Shown here: in pieces, positions 3,126-31,890 of the stretch | Layout: the number at the start of each line of letters is the position of its first letter | How positions within the stretch are numbered: position 1 is the first letter of the stretch | Virus record (IMG/VR): IMGVR_UViG_3300042191_000124 | Location: 1-44,532 of that record | Reading direction: 5' to 3' (one strand) | Origin: a virus | Lineage: Duplodnaviria > Caudoviricetes | DNA length: 44,532 nt | Position numbers and translations under genes: made by a program | Notes under the pieces: model-generated | What the model was told of the DNA's origin: nothing | The model's database searches: none | Seen by the model: only the letters and a program-made list of their open reading frames with translations

Positions 3126-3826
3126 CACCGGGCCGAGCGCATCGCTTGCGCGAACGCTTCCGCCCATCGGATCGGCCACCGCTCCCGCACCGTGCGCTCG
3201 CCCACGGGGAAAAACTCGAAGCGGCGCGGAATGGGAATGCGCGTCTTGTACGTCCAGATCAGTCGCACATCGTGCGGCCCGGGGCCGAACCGCTGATAGA
3301 CGCCCCAGGTCTTGACGCCCTGATGCGCCGTCGGGTCCAGCACGAACGTCCGCTGCTTGCCCTTGAGCTGCACCACCCCGCGCGCCGTGACGTGACGCTG
3401 CGGACCGAGGATGCCCGTCACCCCACGTCGGGGGACGAGCCGCAGGTTCTTCGGGTACAGGCCCCGTGGGGGGAGATCGCTGAAACTCGGCCGGATGTTC
3501 GACGAGGGGATCGCGATCGGCATCGCCGGGTCGAGCGCCTGCTTCACCCCCGCCGCCTGGAACTTGCGCAGGAAGCCCGCCTTCTCCCCGATCTCCACGA
3601 TGACCTGCATGGGGGAGTCGTGCTTGTCCGAGAACTTGGGGATACGGACGCTGTTGAGAATGAACTGTGGCTGCCGCAGCACAAAATTGGCGGCCAGCTC
3701 GCCCTGCTCGGCCTGCTGGACGTCCTTCGCGGTGCGGTTCAAGGCCAGGCTCGCGGCGAAGGGGATCTGGTCGCGGTAGAGCCCGTCGAGAAAAGTCTCG
3801 GCTTCGGACGTGTCAACGCGGATCAC
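3125..3826 (-). CDS. Lambda gpZ-like tail completion/neck protein
   Basis: N-terminal QIPFAASLALNRTAKDVQ and basic C-terminal F..A...A helix typical of gpZ-like proteins. Confidence 0.6.
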   Translation of the reverse strand: MIRVDTSEAETFLDGLYRDQIPFAASLALNRTAKDVQQAEQGELAANFVLRQPQFILNSVRIPKFSDKHDSPMQVIVEIGEKAGFLRKFQAAGVKQALDPAMPIAIPSSNIRPSFSDLPPRGLYPKNLRLVPRRGVTGILGPQRHVTARGVVQLKGKQRTFVLDPTAHQGVKTWGVYQRFGPGPHDVRLIWTYKTRIPIPRRFEFFPVGERTVRERWPIRWAEAFAQAMRSAR

Positions 3827-8583: not shown

Positions 8584-8948
8584 GGCCTCACCTCCAGCCG
8601 GATGCACGCGGGGCACACGATCGCGTTCACGGGGATCGGTTGCCCCTGCCACTGCAGCTCCATCCCGGCGAGGTACTCCGTCGTGTAATCCGCGCCACAG
8701 TTTGAGCAGATCACCGCCCAGTGCCGCGCGCCGGGGAACGCGTCCCTCGCGGCGGGATCACTGAGCCTCAGGAATCGCCAGCACCGGCTGCCGCGCATCG
8801 GCGGGTCGGCGTAGTGCGCGACGCGTTGCGCCCGCTCGGCACACGTGCTGGCGAAGCAACAGGCGGTCCGCTCGTCCTCGGCGGCACGGCAGATCGGCTC
8901 CTTCGGGGGCCGCTCGGCCGTATCGATCGGGACGCTGGGGGCGGTCAT
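8580..8948 (-). CDS. Cys-rich hypothetical protein
   Basis: 122 aa, CSNC...CPAC, coupled overlaps. Confidence 0.65.
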   Translation of the reverse strand: MTAPSVPIDTAERPPKEPICRAAEDERTACCFASTCAERAQRVAHYADPPMRGSRCWRFLRLSDPAARDAFPGARHWAVICSNCGADYTTEYLAGMELQWQGQPIPVNAIVCPACIRLEVRP

Positions 8949-9577
8949 CGACTCGCCCCGAACGTCGCGGCGACGCGCTCAGCATCGGCGACCGGGTGGC
9001 AGTCCAGGCAGAGAACTTCGAGATCGCTGTCCGGCTCATGCCCGAGGTTGTCGTAGCGCAGGTGGTGAACCTCGAGGCCCCGCCCGTAGAGCCCGCACCG
9101 CTCACATCGGTACGCGGCGCGGGCGAGCACTTGGTCACGTCGCGCGCGCCACTCAGGGCTGCGGATGTACGCCTTGTAGTCCGCGGATTGCCGTAGACTG
9201 TGCATCAAAATGTCACCGATCGCGGACAGACTCGAGCGTTTCGGCCGGTGCTTCGCCGTGCGCCAGTAGGCACTGGTGGCGAGCTCGAACATCTGACTGA
9301 CGCCGCTCCGCGTGCAGTACAGCGCGCGCATCGTGACCTTCTGGCCGGGGCGGAGCCAGTCGATCGAGCCCTCGTCGCGGAGCTGCGCCAGGCCAAGTAC
9401 CGCGACCTCGATCTGGGACTGCGAGCGGTGGATCAGGAGCCGCTTGATCACCGACCCTTCCCGCCGCTCGTCCCACGCCGGCGGCGGCAGACCATCGGGT
9501 ACCCACAGGCGCTCCCGAATCAGCGGGAACAGCACCTTGTAGGCGAGCCGCGCGTCGGCGGTGGGAGGTGCCGTCAT
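8945..9577 (-). CDS. Unknown N-terminal domain fused to an HNH endonuclease domain
   Basis: C-terminal YKAYIRSPEW...RCERCG...EVHHLRY...DLEVLCLDCH. Confidence 0.78.
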   Translation of the reverse strand: MTAPPTADARLAYKVLFPLIRERLWVPDGLPPPAWDERREGSVIKRLLIHRSQSQIEVAVLGLAQLRDEGSIDWLRPGQKVTMRALYCTRSGVSQMFELATSAYWRTAKHRPKRSSLSAIGDILMHSLRQSADYKAYIRSPEWRARRDQVLARAAYRCERCGLYGRGLEVHHLRYDNLGHEPDSDLEVLCLDCHPVADAERVAATFGASR

Positions 9578-11434: not shown

Positions 11435-11766
11435 GAGTGGGCCTCCCGTTCGAGCTCGGTGAGCGCGTTCTGGGCGGACGGGTCGAAGGACCAGTGCGGC
11501 ACGACGGGCGACGTGTCCCGGCGATAGCGCACCGGCCGTGGGCGCACGATCCCGAGTCCCTCGGCCACCTGGTCGCTCTCGTCGCCGGGATCCCGCTGCT
11601 CGGCGCCGGGCATGAGGCGCACTTCCTCGGGGGCCGAGTCGAAGTGCCCCGTCGGCGCGGCGGGGTCGTCGAAGCGCAAGGCGGGCGCGATCCCCCGCCG
11701 GCGCGGGGGCCGCTCGACGAGCCCCAGGACGAGGTAGAGCACCACCAGCAGCGCGAGCCAGATCAC
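11431..11766 (-). CDS. Membrane-anchored hypothetical protein
   Basis: N-terminal IWLALLVVLYLVLGLV hydrophobic helix. Confidence 0.7.
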   Translation of the reverse strand: MIWLALLVVLYLVLGLVERPPRRRGIAPALRFDDPAAPTGHFDSAPEEVRLMPGAEQRDPGDESDQVAEGLGIVRPRPVRYRRDTSPVVPHWSFDPSAQNALTELEREAHS

Positions 11767-12449
11767 CGGCCGATCTCCTCGGGGTCGAACAGGGGCGTTT
11801 CCTGGAAGTACTTCGCCTCGTCCTCGTCGTCCTCGAGCTCGTCGTCCGGCTCGGGCGGGCGCTCCTTGGGCTTGGTGGCGTTAGCCGCCCGGCGCGTAAC
11901 CCAGGCTTTACGGAGGGCCGCCGAACGCGTGCCGGGTTCGAGGTGGGCTCGCCGTCGATTGGTGGCCTGCTCCCTCGGCGTCGCCCAGCGGCAGTTGCCG
12001 AGCTCGTAGTTCCCGTCGCCGTTGATGCGATCGATCGTCGTTCCGGGCGGCCGGTCGCCCATGTCCTGGACGAACGCCTCGAAGGATTCAAGCCAGCGCG
12101 CGCAGACGGTGATCCCGCGGCCGCCGTACCTGGCGTAGTGGGCGGCTTGTGGGTCGAGGCACCGTTGCTTCATCGCCTGCCAGGAGTGGTAGGTGCGGTC
12201 GCCGTTCCTATGCGGAGCTACGCATCGACCGTGCATCGTGCGGGAGCGATTGAAGTCACCGATGATGCAGCCGCAACTCTGGCTCTCGCCGGATCGCAGG
12301 GCTCCGCCGGGAACGGCACGGGTGGTGCCGCACTCGCACCGGCAGAGCCACCACCATCCATGCACCTTCATCTCGGGCGGCCGGGGCGCGCGCTCGATGA
12401 CGAGCCAGCGCCCGAAGCGACGGCCGGCCATATCGGTGACGGCCCTCAC
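11763..12449 (-). CDS. HNH homing endonuclease (copy 1 of 3) with acidic C-terminal tail
   Basis: GRRFGRW...WLCRCECG...SCGC...W.AM.QRC...YGGRGI.VC.RW...DRINGDGNYE.GNCRWAT. Confidence 0.88.
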   Translation of the reverse strand: MRAVTDMAGRRFGRWLVIERAPRPPEMKVHGWWWLCRCECGTTRAVPGGALRSGESQSCGCIIGDFNRSRTMHGRCVAPHRNGDRTYHSWQAMKQRCLDPQAAHYARYGGRGITVCARWLESFEAFVQDMGDRPPGTTIDRINGDGNYELGNCRWATPREQATNRRRAHLEPGTRSAALRKAWVTRRAANATKPKERPPEPDDELEDDEDEAKYFQETPLFDPEEIGR

Positions 12450-12937
12450 GTCCACTCTCGCTTCAACTTTTTGCCGCACATTTGGCACGGGTCGTAGGAC
12501 GTTTTTAACTGGCACCAGTTGCAGGTGATCGAGCCGGCGAGCTGGGTGCCGGTGCGGGTCGCCGCGGTCGGCGTCGTCCCCTTCTTCGGCCGCTTCCAGC
12601 CGCCCGCCTTGGCGCGGGTGCGCACGGTCGGCTCCGAGACCTTGGCCGCCTTCGCGATCGCCACCACTGGCGTGCCTGCTTCCCATCCCCGGCGCATGGT
12701 GGCGAGCTGGGTGTCGGTGATGTTGCTGTGGCCCGTCGGCTTGCCGTTCCCCTTGCCGGCGGGCGGCTTCGCCTTCGCTGCCCGGACGGGCAGCAGGGTG
12801 AGGCCCGCCGGCACGACGGCGCCCGCCCGCCGGCGCACGGTGTCGATGATGGCGTCGATGTCCTGGGCCTCCTGCTCCACGGCGCGGCGTTGCTGCTCGA
12901 GCTGGGCCAGCAGGGCCGGGTAGTCGATCGCGGTCAT
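12446..12937 (-). CDS. Coiled-coil + HTH + Zn-ribbon protein, putative regulator
   Basis: PVVAIAKAAKVSEPTVRTRAK HTH; C-terminal CNWC...CQMC; ATG 12937. Confidence 0.65.
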   Translation of the reverse strand: MTAIDYPALLAQLEQQRRAVEQEAQDIDAIIDTVRRRAGAVVPAGLTLLPVRAAKAKPPAGKGNGKPTGHSNITDTQLATMRRGWEAGTPVVAIAKAAKVSEPTVRTRAKAGGWKRPKKGTTPTAATRTGTQLAGSITCNWCQLKTSYDPCQMCGKKLKREWT

Positions 12938-13836
12938 GTGTGCCCCGTGAAGAGTGTGGGTTGGAGTGCGGCGGCCGTGCGCGGCGAGAGCCACAGCGCC
13001 TCGGTGCGGAATCGCCCGGAGCCCACGCCCCCGACCAGCGTCCGCGTCGTGACGCAGGTCCATCCTGCGTACAGCGCGTCGTAGAGGGGGCTGGGGTAGC
13101 CCGAGACGATGGCGAACCCGGTCAGCCCGCGGGCGACCTGGGCTAAGGCCTCGTGATCCGCGGGGCCGAACTCGTGCAGGTAGCCCTTCCCCTTCCCGAA
13201 TGAGGTCCGGGTCTCAGGGAGGTAGGGCGGGTCCAGATAGAACAGGGTGTCGGCGCCGTCATGCACTCGCAGGAGCCGGAGCGCGTCCAGGTTCTCGACG
13301 ACGACGCCCTGCAACCTCGCGTGTGTGGCGGCGATCGTGGGGGGGACCTTGAGCCAGGACAGGTTGTTCGCGCGCCGCGCTCGGTAGTCAGCCGCGCGGA
13401 ATCCGCAGGTCGGGTTCTTGGTTGCGCCGGATCCGTTGAACCCCATGAAGCCGCGCACCACGAGGCAGCGCGCGCGCTCTACCGCCCCGCGTGCCGAGCG
13501 TTTCGCCTGATCGTATTCCTCTCGGGCGTAAGCCGTCCGCTCGATCCGGGCGCAGAGGTCACGGCACTGGCGGCGATTGCGGACGACGCGGAAGAAGTTC
13601 ACGACGTCCCCGTCCAGGTCGTTGTAGACCTCGATTGGCGACCGTTCCTTGCGGAGTAGCACGCCACCGCCGCCACCGAACGCTTCGACGTAGACGCGGT
13701 GCGGGGGGAAGTGTCCGATGATCCAGGGCGCGATCCGCCACTTGCTGCCGTGATACCGCAGCGGCGGCCGCGAGAGACTTGGCCGTGATACCGTAGCGGC
13801 GGCCGCGAGAGGCCGGACCGGAACGGCTGCCGTCAC
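12934..13836 (-). CDS. DNA adenine methyltransferase (D12/Dam class)
   Basis: LRYHGSKW, YVEAFGGGG, VYND, FYLDPPY. Confidence 0.92.
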   Translation of the reverse strand: MTAAVPVRPLAAAATVSRPSLSRPPLRYHGSKWRIAPWIIGHFPPHRVYVEAFGGGGGVLLRKERSPIEVYNDLDGDVVNFFRVVRNRRQCRDLCARIERTAYAREEYDQAKRSARGAVERARCLVVRGFMGFNGSGATKNPTCGFRAADYRARRANNLSWLKVPPTIAATHARLQGVVVENLDALRLLRVHDGADTLFYLDPPYLPETRTSFGKGKGYLHEFGPADHEALAQVARGLTGFAIVSGYPSPLYDALYAGWTCVTTRTLVGGVGSGRFRTEALWLSPRTAAALQPTLFTGHT

Positions 13837-14453
13837 TTGCCCCCCCGCTTGATCCGCTGGCGCTCGGCGTCCGCCTGGTCGTGCGGCTCCCCCTCATCCG
13901 CGAACTGCTCCATCGGCACGAAGATCTCGAGCTGCGCGCTCTCGACGGCCACGCCGAACCCGCGGAGCGGCGGATTCCACAATCCCCACCGCGCCACGAC
14001 GCCCGAGAACTCCGACACGTCGGGCAGCCGCACCGCGTAGGCCCCCGTCTCGGGATCCCGCTCGCAGGCCGACAGCGCGTGATCGACGCAGGCCAGGCGC
14101 TGCTCGGGCGTGAGCCGCAGCCAGAGCTTGTGATTGAACGCCAGCACGAAGTCCAGGGCGGTGAGGAAGGCGAACGGCCCGCCCGGGTGCGCGCTGACCG
14201 TGAGCTTCGAGTCGCCCCGCGAGCTGATGTCCTCGCGGAACAGGTAGGCGATCTTCGCGTTGACGAGCCGCTCGTGCAGCTTCGTCCGGATCAGGATCTT
14301 CGCGATCTCCTCGGGCTGCTCGGCCTTCAGGAACTTCTCGCCCTCCGGCCAGATGCTTCTCAGGGGGGCGTTCAACGCCTTGCTGAACTTGAGATCGAGG
14401 TCCCCGAGGTCGCGGGGCAGCTTCAGTTTCGATGGACTGGCGGTCGCGGTCAT
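13833..14453 (-). CDS. Phage metallopeptidase-family protein with degenerate active site
   Basis: W..LTPEQRLACVDHALSAC...PDVSEF.GVV.RWGLW versus family DHELxH...HDVEEF. Confidence 0.65.
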   Translation of the reverse strand: MTATASPSKLKLPRDLGDLDLKFSKALNAPLRSIWPEGEKFLKAEQPEEIAKILIRTKLHERLVNAKIAYLFREDISSRGDSKLTVSAHPGGPFAFLTALDFVLAFNHKLWLRLTPEQRLACVDHALSACERDPETGAYAVRLPDVSEFSGVVARWGLWNPPLRGFGVAVESAQLEIFVPMEQFADEGEPHDQADAERQRIKRGGK

Positions 14454-14480
14454 GGCACTCCCTCGAGGGGCTGCGGGTAG

Positions 14481-14548
14481 AGCGGCTGCTCCGAATCGAC
14501 GGAGACCTCCGAGCTGGTGGGCTCGGCGCTCGCTTGAGCTTCAGCCGC
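14481..14548 (-). ncRNA. tRNA-like cloverleaf with non-canonical loops
   Basis: GCGGCTG/CAGCCGC acceptor; GCTC-AAGC-GAGC D arm; CCGAG-CCCACCAG-CTCGG anticodon arm; AGGT; CTCCG-TCGATT-CGGAG T arm. Confidence 0.7.
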
Positions 14549-14793
14549 GAGGTGGCGGGGACGAAGGCGGCGCTCGCACGCCGGCCCATCCTTTCCGCTA
14601 CCGCCATCGCGTCCCGCAGAGCGGAGAGATCGGCTGTACGACCGACCGGCAGACCCCGCGGATTGCTAATCGCCGTCTAGAACTCTCCCAGCATTCCTTG
14701 GTTGGCGTCCCCTGCGCTGCGTGGCCTCGCTGGGGGCGGTGCCGTCTCCCGATCCTGCCACGCCACCGGCCTACCTCCGACACGCCAACCAGG

Positions 14794-14865
14794 GCGCGGT
14801 GGGGGTTTGATCCCCCGCTTCATCGGCCCCGGTCGGGTTATGAGCCCCCGGTCCGACCCCCACGC
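14794..14865 (-). ncRNA. D-armless initiator-tRNA-like element
   Basis: GGG-CTCATAA-CCC (CAT anticodon, three G-C pairs), GGGGG-ATCAAA-CCCCC T-like arm, GCGTGG/CCGCGC closing stem. Confidence 0.5.
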
Positions 14866-14937
14866 TGTTCGGCGGCGGTGTGTGACCCAATCCCTTGCGA
14901 GATCGCGCATGGCCACCCTGCTTCACGCCGCCTACGA

Positions 14938-16101
14938 CTACGCCAAGCCCGGCACCTTCTCGCCGGTGTACGGATCCCGCGTCGGGTCGAGCCCGACGTC
15001 GGCGAACGCCGCCATGCCGCGCTCGACGAACGCCGCCCGGTCGATGGCGGGGTCGAGCGGGCGCGCGCCCAGGAATTCGGCCAGCGCCTCGTCCAGCTGC
15101 TTGAACCGCGAGGCTCGCGCGGCCGGCGAGATCTCGTGCTCGGCCCGCCGCAGATCGAGCTGGAAGTGCAGCGCCGCGGCGCGCCACTGCCGCAGCTGCG
15201 TGTGATTCAGGTTCCGCCGCACGTCGCGCGTGACCTCGCGCACCACGAGCCGCACGACGGCCCCGGTGAGATCCCCGAGCTCCGCGACCCGAGCGGCGAT
15301 CGCGGCGTCCAGGTCCTCGGCGCCGAGCCCCGTGCCTTCGATCGGCGCCAGGTCCATGAAGCGCCGCGTCGGGCCAGGTCGGAACTGGACGGTTGGCGCT
15401 CCCGTCCCGAGCTCCACGAGCATCCAGCCTTTGCCCGGGATGCCGTGCTCCGCCTCCGCGCGCAGCTCGCCCCAGACGTCGCTCGAGACGTACTCCAACG
15501 CGCCGACGTAGGCCGCGTTGGGCCGCACCATCGTGTAGACGTGATAGTGGCCCAGGATCACGAAGTCCCACCCCGCGAACCGTTCCGGCGCGATGCGGTG
15601 GGCCGGGCGGTCCGCGCTGCCATGCGGGACGATCCCCTCGACGTCGCCATGGAACACGAGCAGCCCCTCGGGCTCGGCCGGCGGTTCGTGTCCTTCGGGT
15701 ACGCCCCAGACGATCCCGCTGGGCAGTTCGAGCCGCTGCGGCCGGTCCCAGACGACGTGGACGCGGGGGAGCTCCGCGAATAGCGGGAGCACGCACCCGG
15801 TTTCGGTCGCCCGCGGGATCTCATGGTTTCCCCCGACGAGCACGACGTGGAGATCGGGCAGCGCCTCGCACAGCTGGCGCAGCTCACTGAACGCGAGCGT
15901 GATGGACGGGTTCGACGGCCGGACGCGGTCGAAGATGTCCCCCGCAATGGCGAGCACGTCGGGGCGCGCGTCGCGGATCTCCCCCATGGCGCGCTGAAAG
16001 GCCTGGGCGACGTCCAGTTCGCGCTGATCCATCCCACCAGGGCCACTCCGATCGAAGCGGCGGTGCCCCAGGTGGAGATCGGCGAGGGCGGCGATTAGCA
16101 T
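14938..16101 (-). CDS. sbcD: SbcD/Mre11-family metallophosphoesterase nuclease
   Basis: ADLHLG, AGDIFD, GGNHE, FHG, LGHYH motifs; ATG 16101. Confidence 0.88.
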   Translation of the reverse strand: MLIAALADLHLGHRRFDRSGPGGMDQRELDVAQAFQRAMGEIRDARPDVLAIAGDIFDRVRPSNPSITLAFSELRQLCEALPDLHVVLVGGNHEIPRATETGCVLPLFAELPRVHVVWDRPQRLELPSGIVWGVPEGHEPPAEPEGLLVFHGDVEGIVPHGSADRPAHRIAPERFAGWDFVILGHYHVYTMVRPNAAYVGALEYVSSDVWGELRAEAEHGIPGKGWMLVELGTGAPTVQFRPGPTRRFMDLAPIEGTGLGAEDLDAAIAARVAELGDLTGAVVRLVVREVTRDVRRNLNHTQLRQWRAAALHFQLDLRRAEHEISPAARASRFKQLDEALAEFLGARPLDPAIDRAAFVERGMAAFADVGLDPTRDPYTGEKVPGLA

Positions 16102-16610
16102 GAGGCCACCGCCGGGACGGGCCGCCGGTTCGCCCGCTGCTCGATAGGGGTCGCCCATCGACAGTTGCCGGGCTCATAGTTGCCGGCCGGATCGATGCGG
16201 TCCAAGCTGCGGCCTGGTGGCCGCTCGCCCATGTCTGCCAGAAAGTTCTCGAAGCTGTCCCGCCACCGTGCGCAGACGCTGACGCCGACGGCCCCATAGC
16301 GCGGATACTTGGTTGCCTTGGGGTTCTCGCACCGCTGGCGCATAGACTGCCAGGAGCAAAAGGCCCTCGACCGGGTGTGGCCGTGCGTCGTGTGAACGGC
16401 GCGCATCACCGCGACCGCCATGCACCCGCAGCTCGGCGCTACGCCCCGCCGGAGGTTCTTGCTGGTGACCGTACACTCAGTCCCGCAATCGCATCGGCAG
16501 ATCCAGGCTGCGCCGCGATCGCCGGTGCGGTCGCAATGCGTGCCTGCGAACCGCAACACCACCAGTCGACCGAACCGTCGACCCGCGAGATCGACAACCG
16601 GGCGAGCCAC
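16095..16610 (-). CDS. HNH homing endonuclease (copy 2 of 3)
   Basis: GRRFGRL...WICRCDCG...SCGC...LDRIDPAGNYEPGNCRWAT; GTG 16610 in a TAGTG overlap. Confidence 0.88.
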   Translation of the reverse strand: MARPVVDLAGRRFGRLVVLRFAGTHCDRTGDRGAAWICRCDCGTECTVTSKNLRRGVAPSCGCMAVAVMRAVHTTHGHTRSRAFCSWQSMRQRCENPKATKYPRYGAVGVSVCARWRDSFENFLADMGERPPGRSLDRIDPAGNYEPGNCRWATPIEQRANRRPVPAVASC

Positions 16611-17593
16611 TACAGCAGCGACTCCTGCGGCTCGCTGCGCCGCTGCTCGAGCTCCTCGTCGACCGCCGTCCGCATGCGATCGAGGGCCGCGGGATCCTTG
16701 GTCTTCGTCTCGCGGCACCACAGGGCGAGGGCGGTGAGGTCCTCGACGCTGATGGACTCGTCGTCGATCGCCTTCCCCGCGAGGGCCTTGAACGCGGCCG
16801 TCGCGATCACCTTCGGGAAGCGGAACCGCGGCGCGGCCGGCTGCCCAGGGTAGACCGGCGGCGGCTCGTGGTCGTCCTTCTCCTTCGGCTCGTCCTCGCG
16901 CGCGACGGTGAAGATCTCCTCGAGCGCGGCGGCCACGATGGTCGCCTGCGTGTCCGCCCGCTTCGTGGCCCGGCTGACCACGTCGTGCAGCGCGGCGCGG
17001 TAGTCGGGATCCCGCGTGACCTTCGGCGGCTTCCCCTTCTCGTATTCGCACCAGCCACCGTACTTCTTGACCGCGCTGGCCGAGGTGAAGCCCTTCTCCG
17101 CGGTGTTGCAGCTGCCGAGGCCCGCGCCGACGACGCGGCCGAAGTGATCGACGATCGGGATCTCGATCGTGGCCGAGCAGTACTCCCTCGTCTCCTGGCC
17201 GTCGACGCGCCGCGCGGCGCCGCGCGCCCAGCGGAACAGCTGCTTGATCTTCGACGCGCCGCGCTTGGTCAGCGCCTTCGACGTGCTGCCTGGGACCTGG
17301 TAGTAGTCACCCAGCTGGCCGGCGATCAGGTCGCCCTTCGCGTCGCACTTCGCTTCCTCGAAGTAGTCGCTCTGGATGAACTTGATCACGACGTCGCGAT
17401 TCGCCTTGAAGCTCTCGAGGTTCTTGGCGAGATCGAGCGGCGCGCCGAGCTGCTTCATCACCAGCGCCTGGCCGAGGGCGACGAACTGCTGCAGGTCCTC
17501 GTCCCACACCTGCCCCATCTGCTTCCCGTACTTGTCCTCGGCCTCGGCGGCGGTGAGCCGCGTCTGGACCGTCGGCTTCGTGGCGGTCGTCAT
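16610..17593 (-). CDS. Putative single-strand annealing recombinase (Rad52/RecT superfamily-like)
   Basis: LTKRGASKI...G.GSCNTAE...SRATKRA pattern; sits between the Gam-like and SbcD genes. Confidence 0.55.
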   Translation of the reverse strand: MTTATKPTVQTRLTAAEAEDKYGKQMGQVWDEDLQQFVALGQALVMKQLGAPLDLAKNLESFKANRDVVIKFIQSDYFEEAKCDAKGDLIAGQLGDYYQVPGSTSKALTKRGASKIKQLFRWARGAARRVDGQETREYCSATIEIPIVDHFGRVVGAGLGSCNTAEKGFTSASAVKKYGGWCEYEKGKPPKVTRDPDYRAALHDVVSRATKRADTQATIVAAALEEIFTVAREDEPKEKDDHEPPPVYPGQPAAPRFRFPKVIATAAFKALAGKAIDDESISVEDLTALALWCRETKTKDPAALDRMRTAVDEELEQRRSEPQESLL

Positions 17594-19333: not shown

Positions 19334-19445
19334 TCCATCCCCTAACGTGGGAGGTTCTGTCAAAAGACAGGCGCTGGACACGCGTCCAATAGCGCAGATG
19401 CGCCACAACTTGCGCGCAAGTGCGCGATTTGTCAATAGCGAGGTT
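19334..19445. promoter_or_regulatory. Immunity switch region: leftward promoter and candidate operators
   Basis: Minus strand TTGACA (19430-35) -17- CAAGTT (19407-12); perfect palindrome ACTTGCGCGCAAGT 19408-21; dyads CTGTC-AAAA-GACAG and TGGAC-ACGC-GTCCA; repeat CAATAGCG x2. Confidence 0.65.
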
Positions 19446-20015
19446 ATGGGTCCGGCCAAGAGTAAGCTGCACAAGGAGTTCGTCGGCCGACTCCGCGCCG
19501 CCATGGAGCAGAAGGGCTGGCTGGGACGGGGTGCCGCTACCCAACTGGCCAGGGCCGTAGGGGCCAGTCCCTCCCTTGCCGCCTCATGGCTACGCGGGGA
19601 GCGGATACCGCGCAGCCCCTATCTCGGGCGCCTGCCGCGGGTGCTGGGAGTTAGCGCAGATGCGCTAGAAGTGGGGGAAATGCCACCTGCCTCGCCCCAG
19701 GACGACGCCGGCTATGCCGACCGCCCCCCGACCCCTGGTGGCGAGCGTCCCAGGGCAGGGGTAGTATCGGAGCCTGGTCGGGGAGACGAGCACGAGGTTG
19801 CGTGGCGGGGGTTTCGCGTGTTAGCCAGTCGGATCGCCAGGACCATCCAACAGACCGTCCGACTCCACGAGCTCGGCTACACGGCGGCGAGCCGGGCCAT
19901 CCTCGCCGACTCCCTCGCCGTGTTCGCCCGCGAGCTCGACGCCCGCTGCGGCGAGACCGTCTGCGGGGACATCTGGAAGGTGATCGACTGGCTCAGGAAA
20001 CCGCCGGAGGGGTGA
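19446..20015 (+). CDS. CI-like XRE-family repressor
   Basis: FVGRLRAAM...ATQLARAVGASPSLAASWLRGERIP...LPRVLGVSADAL HTH_3; GAGG RBS before ATG 19446. Confidence 0.85.
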   Translation: MGPAKSKLHKEFVGRLRAAMEQKGWLGRGAATQLARAVGASPSLAASWLRGERIPRSPYLGRLPRVLGVSADALEVGEMPPASPQDDAGYADRPPTPGGERPRAGVVSEPGRGDEHEVAWRGFRVLASRIARTIQQTVRLHELGYTAASRAILADSLAVFARELDARCGETVCGDIWKVIDWLRKPPEG

Positions 20016-20085
20016 GCTGCCGCCTGTGCCGGGATGGACAACCCGCGTACCCCAAGCCCCGGCTTTGGACGAACAGCCCACCCCG

Positions 20086-22235: not shown

Positions 22236-22715
22236 TCATCCGAGAAACACCTTGACCGCAATCCCCAGCACAAAGAGCAGAATGGGAATGCCCACGCTGA
22301 GGATCACTCGCTGATTGGCCTTCGCGATCTCCAGCCCTTCGTCCCTGCCCGTCCCCTTGCCCCGGGATACGTCGAGGCTCGCGATGGCGCTCTTCACTTC
22401 ATCAATGCGCTCGTTGATGCGCTCGACGATCCCCACGAACTCGGGTCGGGGAATCATCATCTCTTGCTTCCGCAGCAGGTCGTTATGGCTCGTGTTGTAG
22501 GCGCGCTGCGCTTCCTCGGCCTTGAGAATCGCCTCCTTGCTGGAGGCGAAGGCGGCATCGACGGCGGTCTGGGCCGCCTCCGCCCGCTCCCCGTAGCGTT
22601 CGTGGCGTTCAGCCATCAGTTCCTTGAACGCATCAAACGCCGCCTTCAGGGCGTGGAGGTCGTTCGACAGTTTCACCTCACAGGGCGTCAGGCGACCCTC
22701 CGGCGCGGGCGTCAC
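22236..22715 (-). CDS. Coiled-coil protein with C-terminal TM anchor
   Basis: Heptad-rich body and VILSVGIPILLFVLGIAV tail; GTG 22715 coupled to the upstream mini-ORF. Confidence 0.75.
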   Translation of the reverse strand: MTPAPEGRLTPCEVKLSNDLHALKAAFDAFKELMAERHERYGERAEAAQTAVDAAFASSKEAILKAEEAQRAYNTSHNDLLRKQEMMIPRPEFVGIVERINERIDEVKSAIASLDVSRGKGTGRDEGLEIAKANQRVILSVGIPILLFVLGIAVKVFLG

Positions 22716-22777
22716 TCGTCGTCCCACCCGTCGCCCTCGTAGGGGCCCCAGAACAGCTCACCCTCACAGGACTCCAT
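22712..22777 (-). CDS. 21-aa acidic leader ORF
   Basis: GGGAGG RBS, MESCEGELFWGPYEGDGWDDE, stop overlaps the next start (GTGA). Confidence 0.45.
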   Translation of the reverse strand: MESCEGELFWGPYEGDGWDDE

Positions 22778-22790
22778 GCCGCCTCCCGGG

Positions 22791-22835
22791 AAACAAAAAT
22801 CCCCAGCCATAGCCCCAAGGGGCTCAGCTGGGGAT
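22791..22835 (-). terminator. Intrinsic terminator-like hairpin before the lysis cassette
   Basis: ATCCCCAGC...GCTGGGGAT with inner AGCCCC/GGGGCT stem, followed by TTTTGTTT. Confidence 0.7.
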
Positions 22836-22868
22836 GCCGCGTCACGCGGGTGATCCCCGAACGCCTGC

Positions 22869-22897
22869 AATCTACCGCGCGACGGCCCGCAATCCAA
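22869..22897 (-). promoter_or_regulatory. Putative sigma70-type promoter for the lysis leader
   Basis: TTGGAT-17-TAGATT. Confidence 0.45.
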
Positions 22898-22991
22898 GCG
22901 TGGCGCGAATCGTACCTCAGGCGAGGGTCGTGATCGGGAGTCGGGCGACCCCGAGTGGCGCCCTGTTCTCGTGGGGCATAGCTTCTACGAG

Positions 22992-23576
22992 ATGCCTCAA
23001 CCGACTGTAGACGTTCCGGGCCAGCGATTTGGGCGACTCGTCACCATCGCACGGCGAATAGGACGTGACAGGCAGATCTACTGGCTATGCCGATGCGATT
23101 GCGGCGGGGAGAAGACAGCCCGGTTGGGCCACCTGCGAAGTGGTCGAACTCGATCATGTGGATGCCTCAGCAGAGAACTCACGACGGCACGCAACCGGAC
23201 GCACGGACAAACAAAGCACCCGCTGTATTCCGTATGGTCCGGCATGATCGCCCGCTGCACCAACTCCAAGTTAGCCTGCTTTCACTACTACGGCGGTCGC
23301 GGGATCATAGTCTGCGTGCGGTGGAAGGAGAGCTTCATGGCGTTCCTCTCAGACATGGGTGAGCGACCACTGGGGGCCACGCTGGATCGCATCGACAACG
23401 ACGGCGACTACGAGCCGGGCAACTGCCGGTGGGCGACCCCAAACCAGCAGGCCGCCAACCGGCGACCGCCGCGCCCGGTCGATTGGCGCACAACATCCTT
23501 GCACAAGGCGGGAATGTCGCTCAGCGAGTGCCTCGCCTCGATTCGTACCCTCATTTCCGCCCCCGCGCAGCACTAG
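22992..23576 (+). CDS. HNH homing endonuclease (copy 3 of 3), antisense to late genes
   Basis: GQRFGRL...WLCRCDCG...SCGC...YYGGRGI.VC.RW...LDRIDNDGDYEPGNCRWAT; start ATG 22992 or GTG 22971. Confidence 0.88.
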   Translation: MPQPTVDVPGQRFGRLVTIARRIGRDRQIYWLCRCDCGGEKTARLGHLRSGRTRSCGCLSRELTTARNRTHGQTKHPLYSVWSGMIARCTNSKLACFHYYGGRGIIVCVRWKESFMAFLSDMGERPLGATLDRIDNDGDYEPGNCRWATPNQQAANRRPPRPVDWRTTSLHKAGMSLSECLASIRTLISAPAQH

Positions 23577-30575: not shown

Positions 30576-31402
30576 TAGAGCGCCCCCTCCTTCGGCTCGT
30601 GCACCTCATAGGGGAGCTGCCCGAACGGATAGAAGTACGAGCGGTCCTGCTTGAACCCGAGCCGCTGCTCGGGCCGATGCACCAGTAGCGCCTGCTCCGC
30701 CCGGGCCTCGTCGAAGATCAGCACGGCGGGCGACTCGGCCCCGTACCGCTTGAGGTGATACCGGAACTGCTCGTAGGCGTCGAACGTGGCGTGGTGGATC
30801 GGCACGCTCCCCGAGGGGAAGACCGTCCGCCGGCCCATGCCCACGTAGCCCGCTTCGTTGCGCTCCCGCGTGGCGAGGAGATCGTTCGCGTCGGGGAACT
30901 CGCCCAGGTCGCGGTCGAAGGAGTAGGAGAGACCGACGAGGCCGTTCACGAGCGGCTTGAGCCCCGCGCCCATCGCGACGGAATAGATCCGCACCGCCGC
31001 CGCCGCTCGCCTGGGGAACCGCTTGAGCCACATCGTGCCGTCCTCGCACACCACGCCCAGCGCGTCATCCACCGAGCCGGTGCCCGGCACGGTCGGCAGC
31101 GCGGCGCTGAAGATCGTCTGCGCGGGGGTGGCGAAGTCGTCATCCGACGCCTCGATCTTCACCGTCTCGCCCAAGAGGTTGTGATTCCAGAGGCACACGA
31201 AATCGAACGCCCGCACGCGGTCGAAGATCGCCTTGATCCACCAGTCGGAGTTGGCCGTCGTGGCGGACGCCTGCTGGTCGCGCCGGCCCGCCGCGAAGCG
31301 GGACGCCTCGAGCCCCGTCGGCTCCTCCTCGGCCGTGACCGCATGGCTGGGGTACTGCTCGACGGTGTCGAACAGGTTGTCCACGCATAACAAAGCACTC
31401 AT
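30575..31402 (-). CDS. Distal tail (Dit-position) structural protein
   Basis: 275 aa, first structural gene after the tape measure; synteny only. Confidence 0.55.
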   Translation of the reverse strand: MSALLCVDNLFDTVEQYPSHAVTAEEEPTGLEASRFAAGRRDQQASATTANSDWWIKAIFDRVRAFDFVCLWNHNLLGETVKIEASDDDFATPAQTIFSAALPTVPGTGSVDDALGVVCEDGTMWLKRFPRRAAAAVRIYSVAMGAGLKPLVNGLVGLSYSFDRDLGEFPDANDLLATRERNEAGYVGMGRRTVFPSGSVPIHHATFDAYEQFRYHLKRYGAESPAVLIFDEARAEQALLVHRPEQRLGFKQDRSYFYPFGQLPYEVHEPKEGAL

Positions 31403-31890
31403 CGAAGCGCCTCACGAATCTGCGCTTGACGTCTTGGAGAAAGAAACCGATAGACGGTCAGTAAGAAACCACGCGCGCGCGGCCCACAGGCATACCATCG
31501 CCACATGAGCCCGCCGCCAATGCTGTTGGCCGCACCCCAGTGGCCTGTCGATCCGCCGAACAAGTCACGCATTCGATGGGGCAGCCACGCGTCTTTCTGC
31601 GATACATTCGCAGTGACCGACCCACCCGTGCGGGTAGCGTGGCCCTCTCCCTCGTAGATGCCAGCCGCCCAGGCGATGTCGCGGGCGGTCGGCGTAACGA
31701 TGGAAGGACAGTGCCTCCATGTGCGATAGCGCCGACTGAGCCCTAGCCGTCGCCCCATGAGCTGGAGCGAATGGAAGCTCCGTCCTGGCAACATGGAGAG
31801 CAGTTGGCCACGCGGGGTTGACCGGTAGTGCCTGGTCAATGTTTCGCGCTCAGCATCGCTCCAGCGTTTGCAGATGTCACCTTTTTTCAT
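31399..31890 (-). CDS. Free-standing LAGLIDADG-type homing endonuclease
   Basis: IAWAAGIYEGEGH helix, VSQKD, FGG; N-terminal W...E...L...Y Myb/HTH-like segment. Confidence 0.78.
   Translation of the reverse strand: MKKGDICKRWSDAERETLTRHYRSTPRGQLLSMLPGRSFHSLQLMGRRLGLSRRYRTWRHCPSIVTPTARDIAWAAGIYEGEGHATRTGGSVTANVSQKDAWLPHRMRDLFGGSTGHWGAANSIGGGLMWRWYACGPRARGFLLTVYRFLSPRRQAQIREALR

Follow-up and report, generated by a model that had tools for sequence, protein, structure and literature searches.

A conserved cassette of structured RNA units, including candidate tRNA mimics, in a family of phages

The window, the whole stretch of DNA analysed here, is a 44.5-kb virus record (44,532 nt) with genes for terminase, portal, capsid, tail, endolysin and integrase, almost all of them on the minus strand. 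Because structural genes and an integrase are present in this arrangement, the phage is most likely temperate. A gap at 14454–14937, between the gene for an SbcD-like protein and that for a PF18894 putative metallopeptidase, holds an array of RNA units that begins 5 nt past the stop codon of the SbcD-like gene. The genes and features of the locus, from upstream to downstream, are these:

14938..16101, minus strand: SbcD/Mre11-like metallophosphoesterase, the upstream gene (PHROG 100, PF00149)
14871..14932, minus strand: module F, a long irregular hairpin with internal loops and the first unit of every array
14866..14870, minus strand: F–E spacer GAACA, kept in 10 of 12 aligned arrays and near-identical in the other two
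14793..14865, minus strand: module E, defined by 12-sequence covariation and tabulated features
14699..14791, minus strand: module D, a multi-stem unit closed by a 10-bp helix
14622..14688, minus strand: module C, compared in four sequences
14555..14617, minus strand: module B, weakly supported
14481..14548, minus strand: module A, a compact cloverleaf of apparent tRNA-Gly lineage, defined by 11-sequence covariation and tabulated features
14471..14478, minus strand: short motif that precedes the ribosome-binding site and is also seen at the 3′ end of related arrays
13833..14453, minus strand: putative phage metallopeptidase PF18894, the downstream gene (Pfam match)

Named homologs of the SbcD-like protein come from Gemmatimonadales and Gemmatimonadaceae and those of the PF18894 protein from Gemmatimonadales, and a contig of a Gemmatimonadales MAG carries an 83% identical copy of the PF18894 gene. 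From these matches the host of the window phage is likely a member of the Gemmatimonadota, and the family described below likely consists of temperate phages of Gemmatimonadota bacteria. A contig from DNA run X1 that may itself be the source of the window covers the region without differences. At the array, a scan for sigma-70-type promoters and for terminators, of a type that may not suit the presumed host, was negative. The gap had been described as the largest in its surroundings; with a crude gene caller it ties with 19334–19817 (484 nt), and two gaps are larger. The second gap of equal size (19334–20085) contains a small plus-strand ORF and is possibly a divergent control region. Elsewhere in this 44-kb phage, at least five reading frames are of the HNH endonuclease type (8945–9577, 11763–12686, 16095–17051, 22971–23576 and 31399–31890), and the stretch 22501–22985 (minus strand) has the lowest folding z in a genome-wide scan, about −3.0 from 12 shuffles only.

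Six units with closed stems lie on the minus strand of the gap, 2–10 nt apart, at the positions and with the closing stems that the original prediction had given. Measured against dinucleotide shuffles, the description of these units as structured holds for module A (z = −3.1, 1 of 300 shuffles) but not for D (−1.7), F (−1.6), E (−1.2), C (−1.1), B (−0.6) or the gap as a whole (−0.2). Tiling by closed units is ordinary in this genome: 21 of 63 equal-sized stretches of the window yield at least five units of 55–100 nt, as the gap does; the original prediction carried the caveat that high GC makes single stems likely by chance. Neither ARAGORN nor Rfam, both proposed earlier as checks, matched anything in the gap or found a canonical tRNA in the window, although the module A copies of three relatives pass RF00005. 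ARAGORN under relaxed settings proved unusable as evidence because it returned many chance cloverleaves on both strands. A blastn search against annotated phages and plasmids gave only short chance matches (31 weak hits).

The gap is non-coding, with negative scores in all six frames under the phage's own codon model. A conserved protein, considered earlier as a competing content of the gap, was not found there: the ORF at 14677–14916 (79 codons) scores −0.25, against +0.15 to +0.36 for eight scored genes, and its tblastn search matched only the window itself among the related loci then gathered. The case that the array is real comes from the comparison of homologs, not from single-sequence folding.

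Eleven further distinct arrays (L003, L004, L017, L018, L021, L022, L024, L027, L029, L040 and L150) bring the total to 12 distinct phage loci, window included. They were obtained by alignment-seeded scans of viral contigs, metagenomes and genomes and by one pattern scan, after removal of duplicates (L019, L020, L026, L069, L086, L115 and later refetches) and of contigs too short upstream (L023, L025, L028 and L030). Pattern scanning for E gave five real loci of 99 (L105 and L083 were inspected and rejected) and for G two of 17, both already in the set; scanning for A revealed no new array among 119 loci, with 31 of 64 parts of the collection covered, and scanning for C no real locus. Protein-seeded viral scans returned none and one locus, and L001 is without an array. 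In bacteria, none of 151 genomes from the MAG's order, a set without a positive control, matched the E model, and the E pattern occurred in 30 of 401 genomes of that order or phylum, about the rate of the reversed control, with none of the 30 fetched loci fitting the E profile. A DNA search of the 401 genomes gave short weak matches in 13.

An array is present in each of the seven distinct loci that have a close PF18894 homolog and sufficient DNA upstream. In nearly all arrays, which span 480–620 nt, the units run in the order F, GAACA-type spacer, E, variable middle, A, hairpin G where present, short motif and next ribosome-binding site. F and E occur in 12 of 12, module A in 10 (an intact copy is absent from L017 and L018) and hairpin G in 10. 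The array of L018, without an intact A, has at about 3730–3770 an A-like anticodon arm with an enlarged loop inside its middle module. Hairpin G, which is long and covarying, precedes the motif and the next gene in L003, L004, L017, L018, L021, L022, L024, L027, L029 and L040; its absence from the window (14454–14481) looks like a deletion between short direct repeats, which flank G in L022. The genes on either side of the array differ between loci, and the array is therefore not tied to sbcD; more distant SbcD-bearing phages (L005 and L007–L010) have no array in the DNA after that gene.

Covariation in these homologs came out strong for modules E and A, as the original prediction had proposed to check: none of 500 shuffles reached the score of either, counted in cells that overstate independent events because the array copies are related (two pairs exceed 90% identity in each of the two families). 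Seven 85-column slices of a neighbouring gene, a rough control with eight closer sequences, show 0–3 two-sided pairs. A reading of the gap as GC-rich stems formed by chance, as a gene for a small protein or as an assembly error draws on the fact that closed-stem tiling alone is common in the window genome. Against it stand the negative coding scores, the missing ORF homolog, the covariation and the independent contigs from other metagenomes; we regard this reading as hardly credible overall and, for A and E, as already refuted.

Module E folds into a 6-bp acceptor-like stem plus a G·A, a long irregular arm and a T-like hairpin, with C at position 73 (14793). At the tip of the long arm, a 3-bp stem carries a 7-nt anticodon loop with CAU (14838–14844). 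The nine pairs tested across 12 sequences (pairwise identity 46–94%) belong to the acceptor-like stem and to the 3-bp stem under the loop; they are 99.1% paired, and seven of them show two-sided change. In every copy the loop has 7 nt with U33 and CAU, while its closing stem exists in four variants. The consensus fold has no D arm, and 12–15 nt separate position 10 from the loop; a canonical tRNA has 10 stacked steps over that arm. As no E copy is canonical (0 of 12), the covariation belongs to the mimic state. The acceptor and T-like stems stack over 12 positions in eight copies, 13 in three and 16 in one, and the acceptor branch in most copies is built of 6 bp, unpaired positions and a further 4–5 bp.

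E had been called fMet-like, which holds for its anticodon loop only. The window's E matches the fMet tRNA of the Gemmatimonadales MAG exactly over 14 nt of the anticodon arm, and in pairwise alignment fMet ties with Ser and His. Three consecutive G–C pairs close its anticodon stem, but this is so in just five of 12 copies. Initiator tRNA-fMet is marked by an unpaired 1:72 and by A73, both seen in the MAG's fMet tRNA; in E, numbered from U8, G1–C72 is paired and 11 of 12 copies have C at position 73. On these two features, together with the lack of a D arm and the over-long arm, an identity of E as an initiator tRNA was rejected. A hammerhead ribozyme in E was likewise discarded, with the second conserved core segment absent and no Rfam match.

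Module A had been predicted to be a full cloverleaf and folds as one both in the window and in the consensus of 11 sequences. Its stems measure 7/4/5/5, with a 4-nt D-loop, a 6-nt T-loop and, in the window, an 8-nt anticodon loop at 14514–14521 and U73 at 14481. The window copy encodes no CCA, which we count as normal because none of the 30 tRNA genes of the related MAG encodes it; the MAG's Gly genes end like A. Among the 11 copies (pairwise identity 41–96%), 94.7% of cells are paired over 19 pairs, 12 of which show two-sided change. Slid-structure controls all score far lower than the true register, a comparison in which the test structure, as the RNAalifold consensus of the same alignment, has an advantage over the slid controls.

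Sequence comparison places module A in a tRNA-Gly lineage that grades into canonical tRNA, a derivation from glycine tRNA with intact synthetase identity bases that the original prediction had missed. The copies of L027, L024 and L006 exceed the RF00005 cut-off (33–43 bits versus 29), the last of these occurring without E. A canonical tRNA-Gly(GCC) with an altered 32/38 loop pair lies at L187:1176–1248 (G375:C68), in a genome from the same phylum sample, and a single small ORF separates it from the distantly related PF18894 gene downstream. Module A model R2 scores the MAG's three Gly tRNAs at 61–64 bits and the other tRNAs in the given loci at no more than 41. By pairwise alignment alone, the window's A is not nearest to Gly (Arg-CCG z 5.9, Gly-TCC z 5.0). 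Invariant in all 11 copies are G1–C72, C2–G71, G3–C70, U73, C35, C36 and A37. The bacterial glycine identity set, as given in the relevant part of PMC9976931, comprises G1–C72, C2–G71, U73, C35 and C36, and is present in 11 of 11 copies; G3–C70 and A37 lie outside it.

Other tRNA features have been lost: U8 in eight of the 11 copies, the D-loop GG in 10, U33 in eight and the 7-nt anticodon loop in four. The window's A is without all five of U8, D-loop GG, U33, 7-nt anticodon loop and 7-nt T-loop, and it keeps a four-stem cloverleaf with a 7-bp acceptor and a 5-bp T stem, as in canonical tRNA. Positions 32 and 38 form a Watson–Crick pair in 10 of 11 copies, as in the MAG's GCC and CCC tRNA-Gly. 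One published FaRel2 determinant is missing from the window's A, where pair 5–68 is C5–G68 and not purine–pyrimidine; five of 11 copies, the window's included, lack one such determinant at pair 4 or 5.

On one rival reading, module A would still take part in translation: as an atypical tRNA-Gly, it would stand in for host tRNA-Gly that a defence toxin has destroyed or blocked, and the other units would be accessory. Such a role agrees with the continuous series from the copies above the Rfam cut-off to the canonical tRNA-Gly(GCC) of L187 and with the intact glycine identity. It also agrees with changes at loop positions 32/33/38 and acceptor pairs 4–6, the pattern proposed for nuclease-resistant phage tRNAs in the section of PMC10264068 that treats them, and with changes at FaRel2 determinant positions. 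The missing FaRel2 determinant fits escape better than bait for that toxin class, and the kept 32–38 pair could reflect tuning for decoding; both speak against a simple bait role and fit A as a resistant, translating replacement. However, the window copy combines an 8-nt anticodon loop, a 4-nt D-loop and a 6-nt T-loop with the absence of U33 and U8, and translation by A leaves unexplained why E is in 12 of 12 arrays when an intact A is missing from L017 and L018. We consider this reading unlikely.

The gradient of A copies from canonical to degenerate, together with the low single-sequence folding scores, would also be expected of a decaying phage tRNA cluster with no current function. Yet compensation persists in the five most degenerate A copies, where both partners differ at 8 of 22 pairs, mostly between two haplotype groups, and the fold was therefore kept after the canonical loops had been lost. 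Compensatory changes also occur in E, whose copies are never canonical, and the array is retained in every informative close relative. Decay is thus largely refuted, and we assign it very little probability.

The remaining units are less uniform. In module F the closing stem and inner hairpin recur, with two-sided change at 3 of 21 pairs among the three closest copies and at 3 of 22 pairs in a second subfamily (n = 5); several F subfamilies exist. In its fold F is a long irregular hairpin, unlike a tRNA or a tRNA half. Units in the same position as D in L018, L040 and L150 are closed by a related helix (position and helix ends recur), and no homolog of D's interior was found among the related loci. 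The terminal CCA of D, noted earlier as an ACCA ending, is present but paired with D's 5′ TGG in the fold. In module C, an acceptor-like stem of 6 bp, followed by a G, stacks on a hairpin with 6 bp and a 6-nt loop, and there is a single side arm of 4 bp. In four sequences its 16 pairs are 100% paired, three show two-sided change and 2 of 500 shuffles reach the covariation score. C was rejected as the tRNA-like domain of a mini tmRNA, as its pair 3 is G–C or A–U and not G3·U70, and its 5′ likeness to five tmRNAs is not above shuffles, at best 23 of 300. In module B only the first hairpin recurs, with five consensus pairs (n = 4) and two-sided change at none. The T-like loops of six nucleotides described for A, B, C and E (TCGATT, TGCGAG, CGTACA and ATCAAA) are all present in the window; this length is kept in four of four C copies and part of the A copies, but in E only the window has six. 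The ending CCGC-TCT shared by A and C in the window is not kept in the three C homologs. Covariation is strong for E and A, moderate for C, present for F and weak for B, and we do not count F, D, B and C as tRNA-derived.

The units are separable. ORFs interrupt the arrays of L003 and L017 after E, L006 and L187 carry A but no E, neither the window nor L150 has G, and the middle of the array is exchanged wholesale between loci. The interruptions are whole ORFs inserted directly after E (L003:4438–4950 and L017:3190–3663); that of L017 resembles the window's HNH-type ORFs and that of L003 has no Pfam match. Such insertions recall the homing endonucleases found in phage tRNA clusters. L027 (2898–3036) and L150 (1240–1388, minus strand) share a further conserved multi-stem middle module, with compensatory changes at five pairs and no Rfam match. 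If the whole 480–620 nt were one long structured RNA whose domains fold together, the fixed order and conserved junctions would follow. Against this stand the insertion of whole ORFs, A copies that occur alone, arrays lacking G and the swapping of entire middles, and by inspection no covariation indicates a pseudoknot between E's CAU loop and the nearby junction. Pairing of A's loop with E's trailer likewise showed no covariation by inspection. We consider a single long RNA improbable.

The gap holds a row of RNA structures that is non-coding and conserved. We tentatively read two of them as tRNA mimics and the set as non-decoding decoys, an interpretation that is plausible while somewhat short of probable. 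The set of non-translating tRNA-like RNAs proposed originally is retained here for A, with its tRNA-Gly lineage, and for E, with its Met anticodon and no D arm, but not for F, D, B and C. Co-transcription with the phage early genes is likely: the array lies on the coding strand, 5 nt beyond a stop codon, and the scan showed neither a sigma-70-type promoter nor a terminator. A, C and most E copies retain an acceptor/T stack of about 12 steps (7+5 in A, 6+6 in C); because of this stack, and because the MAG's tRNA genes encode no CCA, host RNase P and RNase Z are predicted to cut the array into small RNAs to which CCA would then be added. A could still be bound, and perhaps charged, by GlyRS, and E would present the anticodon loop of a Met tRNA while its arm is too long for decoding. 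The released units would be putative ligands or decoys for host tRNA-binding proteins, most plausibly toxins that attack tRNA. Selection appears to have kept the tRNA parts read by processing enzymes and synthetases, namely the stack, the glycine identity bases and the Met anticodon loop, and to have dropped most canonical elbow and U-turn parts.

The same stack would serve a role in cis, in which the tRNA-shaped folds recruit RNase P and RNase Z to cut or stabilise the early transcript or set translation of the next gene, the RNAs themselves having no target. The position of the array between a stop codon and a ribosome-binding site is consistent with such a role, as is the location of hairpin G and the short motif directly before the next start codon in relatives. 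On the other hand, cutting should need neither an invariant CAU loop nor an invariant C35-C36-A37, one site would be enough where each array has several exchangeable units, and the flanking genes differ between loci. A role in cis is, in our judgement, rather improbable.

In favour of the decoy interpretation, the portion of PMC11559606 that lists the targets of GNAT and toxSAS toxins names both tRNA-Gly and Met-tRNAfMet. Of 61 genomes from the MAG's order, 48 have PIN-domain genes, which is weak evidence, such genes being common. It is possible, though doubtful, that the array is more specifically a modular, RNA-only anti-defence cassette, a tRNA cluster turned into exchangeable decoys for defence toxins that cleave or modify tRNA. 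Each decoy would then show one face of a host tRNA (glycine acceptor and anticodon, Met anticodon loop, others in the variable middle) and never enter the ribosome. We found no report of decoy activity for any phage tRNA mimic in the open-access literature; published phage tRNAs act by replacement, according to the sections of PMC11555353 and PMC10264068 concerned with them.

Phage tRNAs that counter tRNA-targeting defences are, as treated in those sections, also phage-borne with altered anticodon loops, and by analogy the array is likely under the same selective pressure (PMC11555353, PMC10264068). Those tRNAs are canonical replacements, whereas ARAGORN and Rfam recognise none of the window's units and E cannot serve as a canonical adaptor. 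In layout the array resembles the polycistrons of irregular tRNAs and inactive allo-tRNAs that Mukai et al. (2017; PMC5389517) describe, in the portions compared, from soil and sediment data, some of them charged but unused in translation and with a proposed toxin–antitoxin link; both are tandem irregular tRNA-like units. As described there, the Mukai units are 8/4 or 7/5 cloverleaves assigned to Acidobacteria, and the two sequences compared keep a canonical T-loop (PMC5389517). In contrast, A is 7/5 with eroded loops, C is 6/6 and E has no D arm, and none of the three has the Mukai-type 8/4 or 9/3 acceptor branch, G-1 or extra loop. The array is further set apart as a fixed-order cassette in phages that are likely temperate.

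A non-proteinogenic tRNA-Gly of Staphylococcus aureus is glycylated and kept from EF-Tu and the ribosome, and like A it is remodelled in the D and T arms; in the part of PMC7826273 describing it, it is chromosomal and serves Fem-type peptidoglycan transferases. Among the 118 proteins of the window and its relatives scanned with Pfam, most without a match, we recognised no Fem-type transferase, no tRNA-modifying enzyme, ligase, synthetase or toxin gene, and no toxin–antitoxin genes near the arrays. Phage T4 offers a further parallel in RNAC and RNAD (species 1 and 2), small RNAs of obscure role that are serially transcribed from its tRNA region, as outlined in the relevant passages of PMC3014915 and PMC12685909. 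Those lie among canonical tRNA genes, of which the window has none by ARAGORN and Rfam, and no T4-like record is among the 31 weak blastn matches. D-arm-less tRNAs are described only for mitochondria in the pertinent part of PMC7609411. A search of the open-access literature, with subscription journals outside its scope, found no published description of this RNA-array family.

Taken at the level of sequence comparison, these arrays are a real family of phage RNA cassettes, undescribed in the open-access literature searched. They differ from the published phage answers to tRNA-targeting immunity, which are canonical replacement tRNAs. ARAGORN and Rfam overlook the array in the window, although it is conserved and covaries; such elements are therefore probably missed in phage annotation. 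The family forms a natural series from canonical tRNA-Gly to stripped-down mimic, and E is a D-arm-less bacterial-phage RNA with a fixed CAU loop. With short synthetic RNAs, the A series and E make two matters testable: the use of tRNA decoys by phages, and the role of small RNAs in phage tRNA regions.

Several further tRNA-like stretches were noted in passing. The contig end of L029 (1098–1145) repeats part of module A inside the metallopeptidase gene and is probably a chimeric assembly end. Weak RF00005 matches of 20–23 bits occur in related phage records (G004:C1:35278–35338, G002:C1:27845–27925 and G005:C1:22030–22102) and are possibly attachment-site remnants. Two other viral records contain odd tRNA-Gly-like stretches that ARAGORN misses (L254:1488–1535 and L295:300–347).
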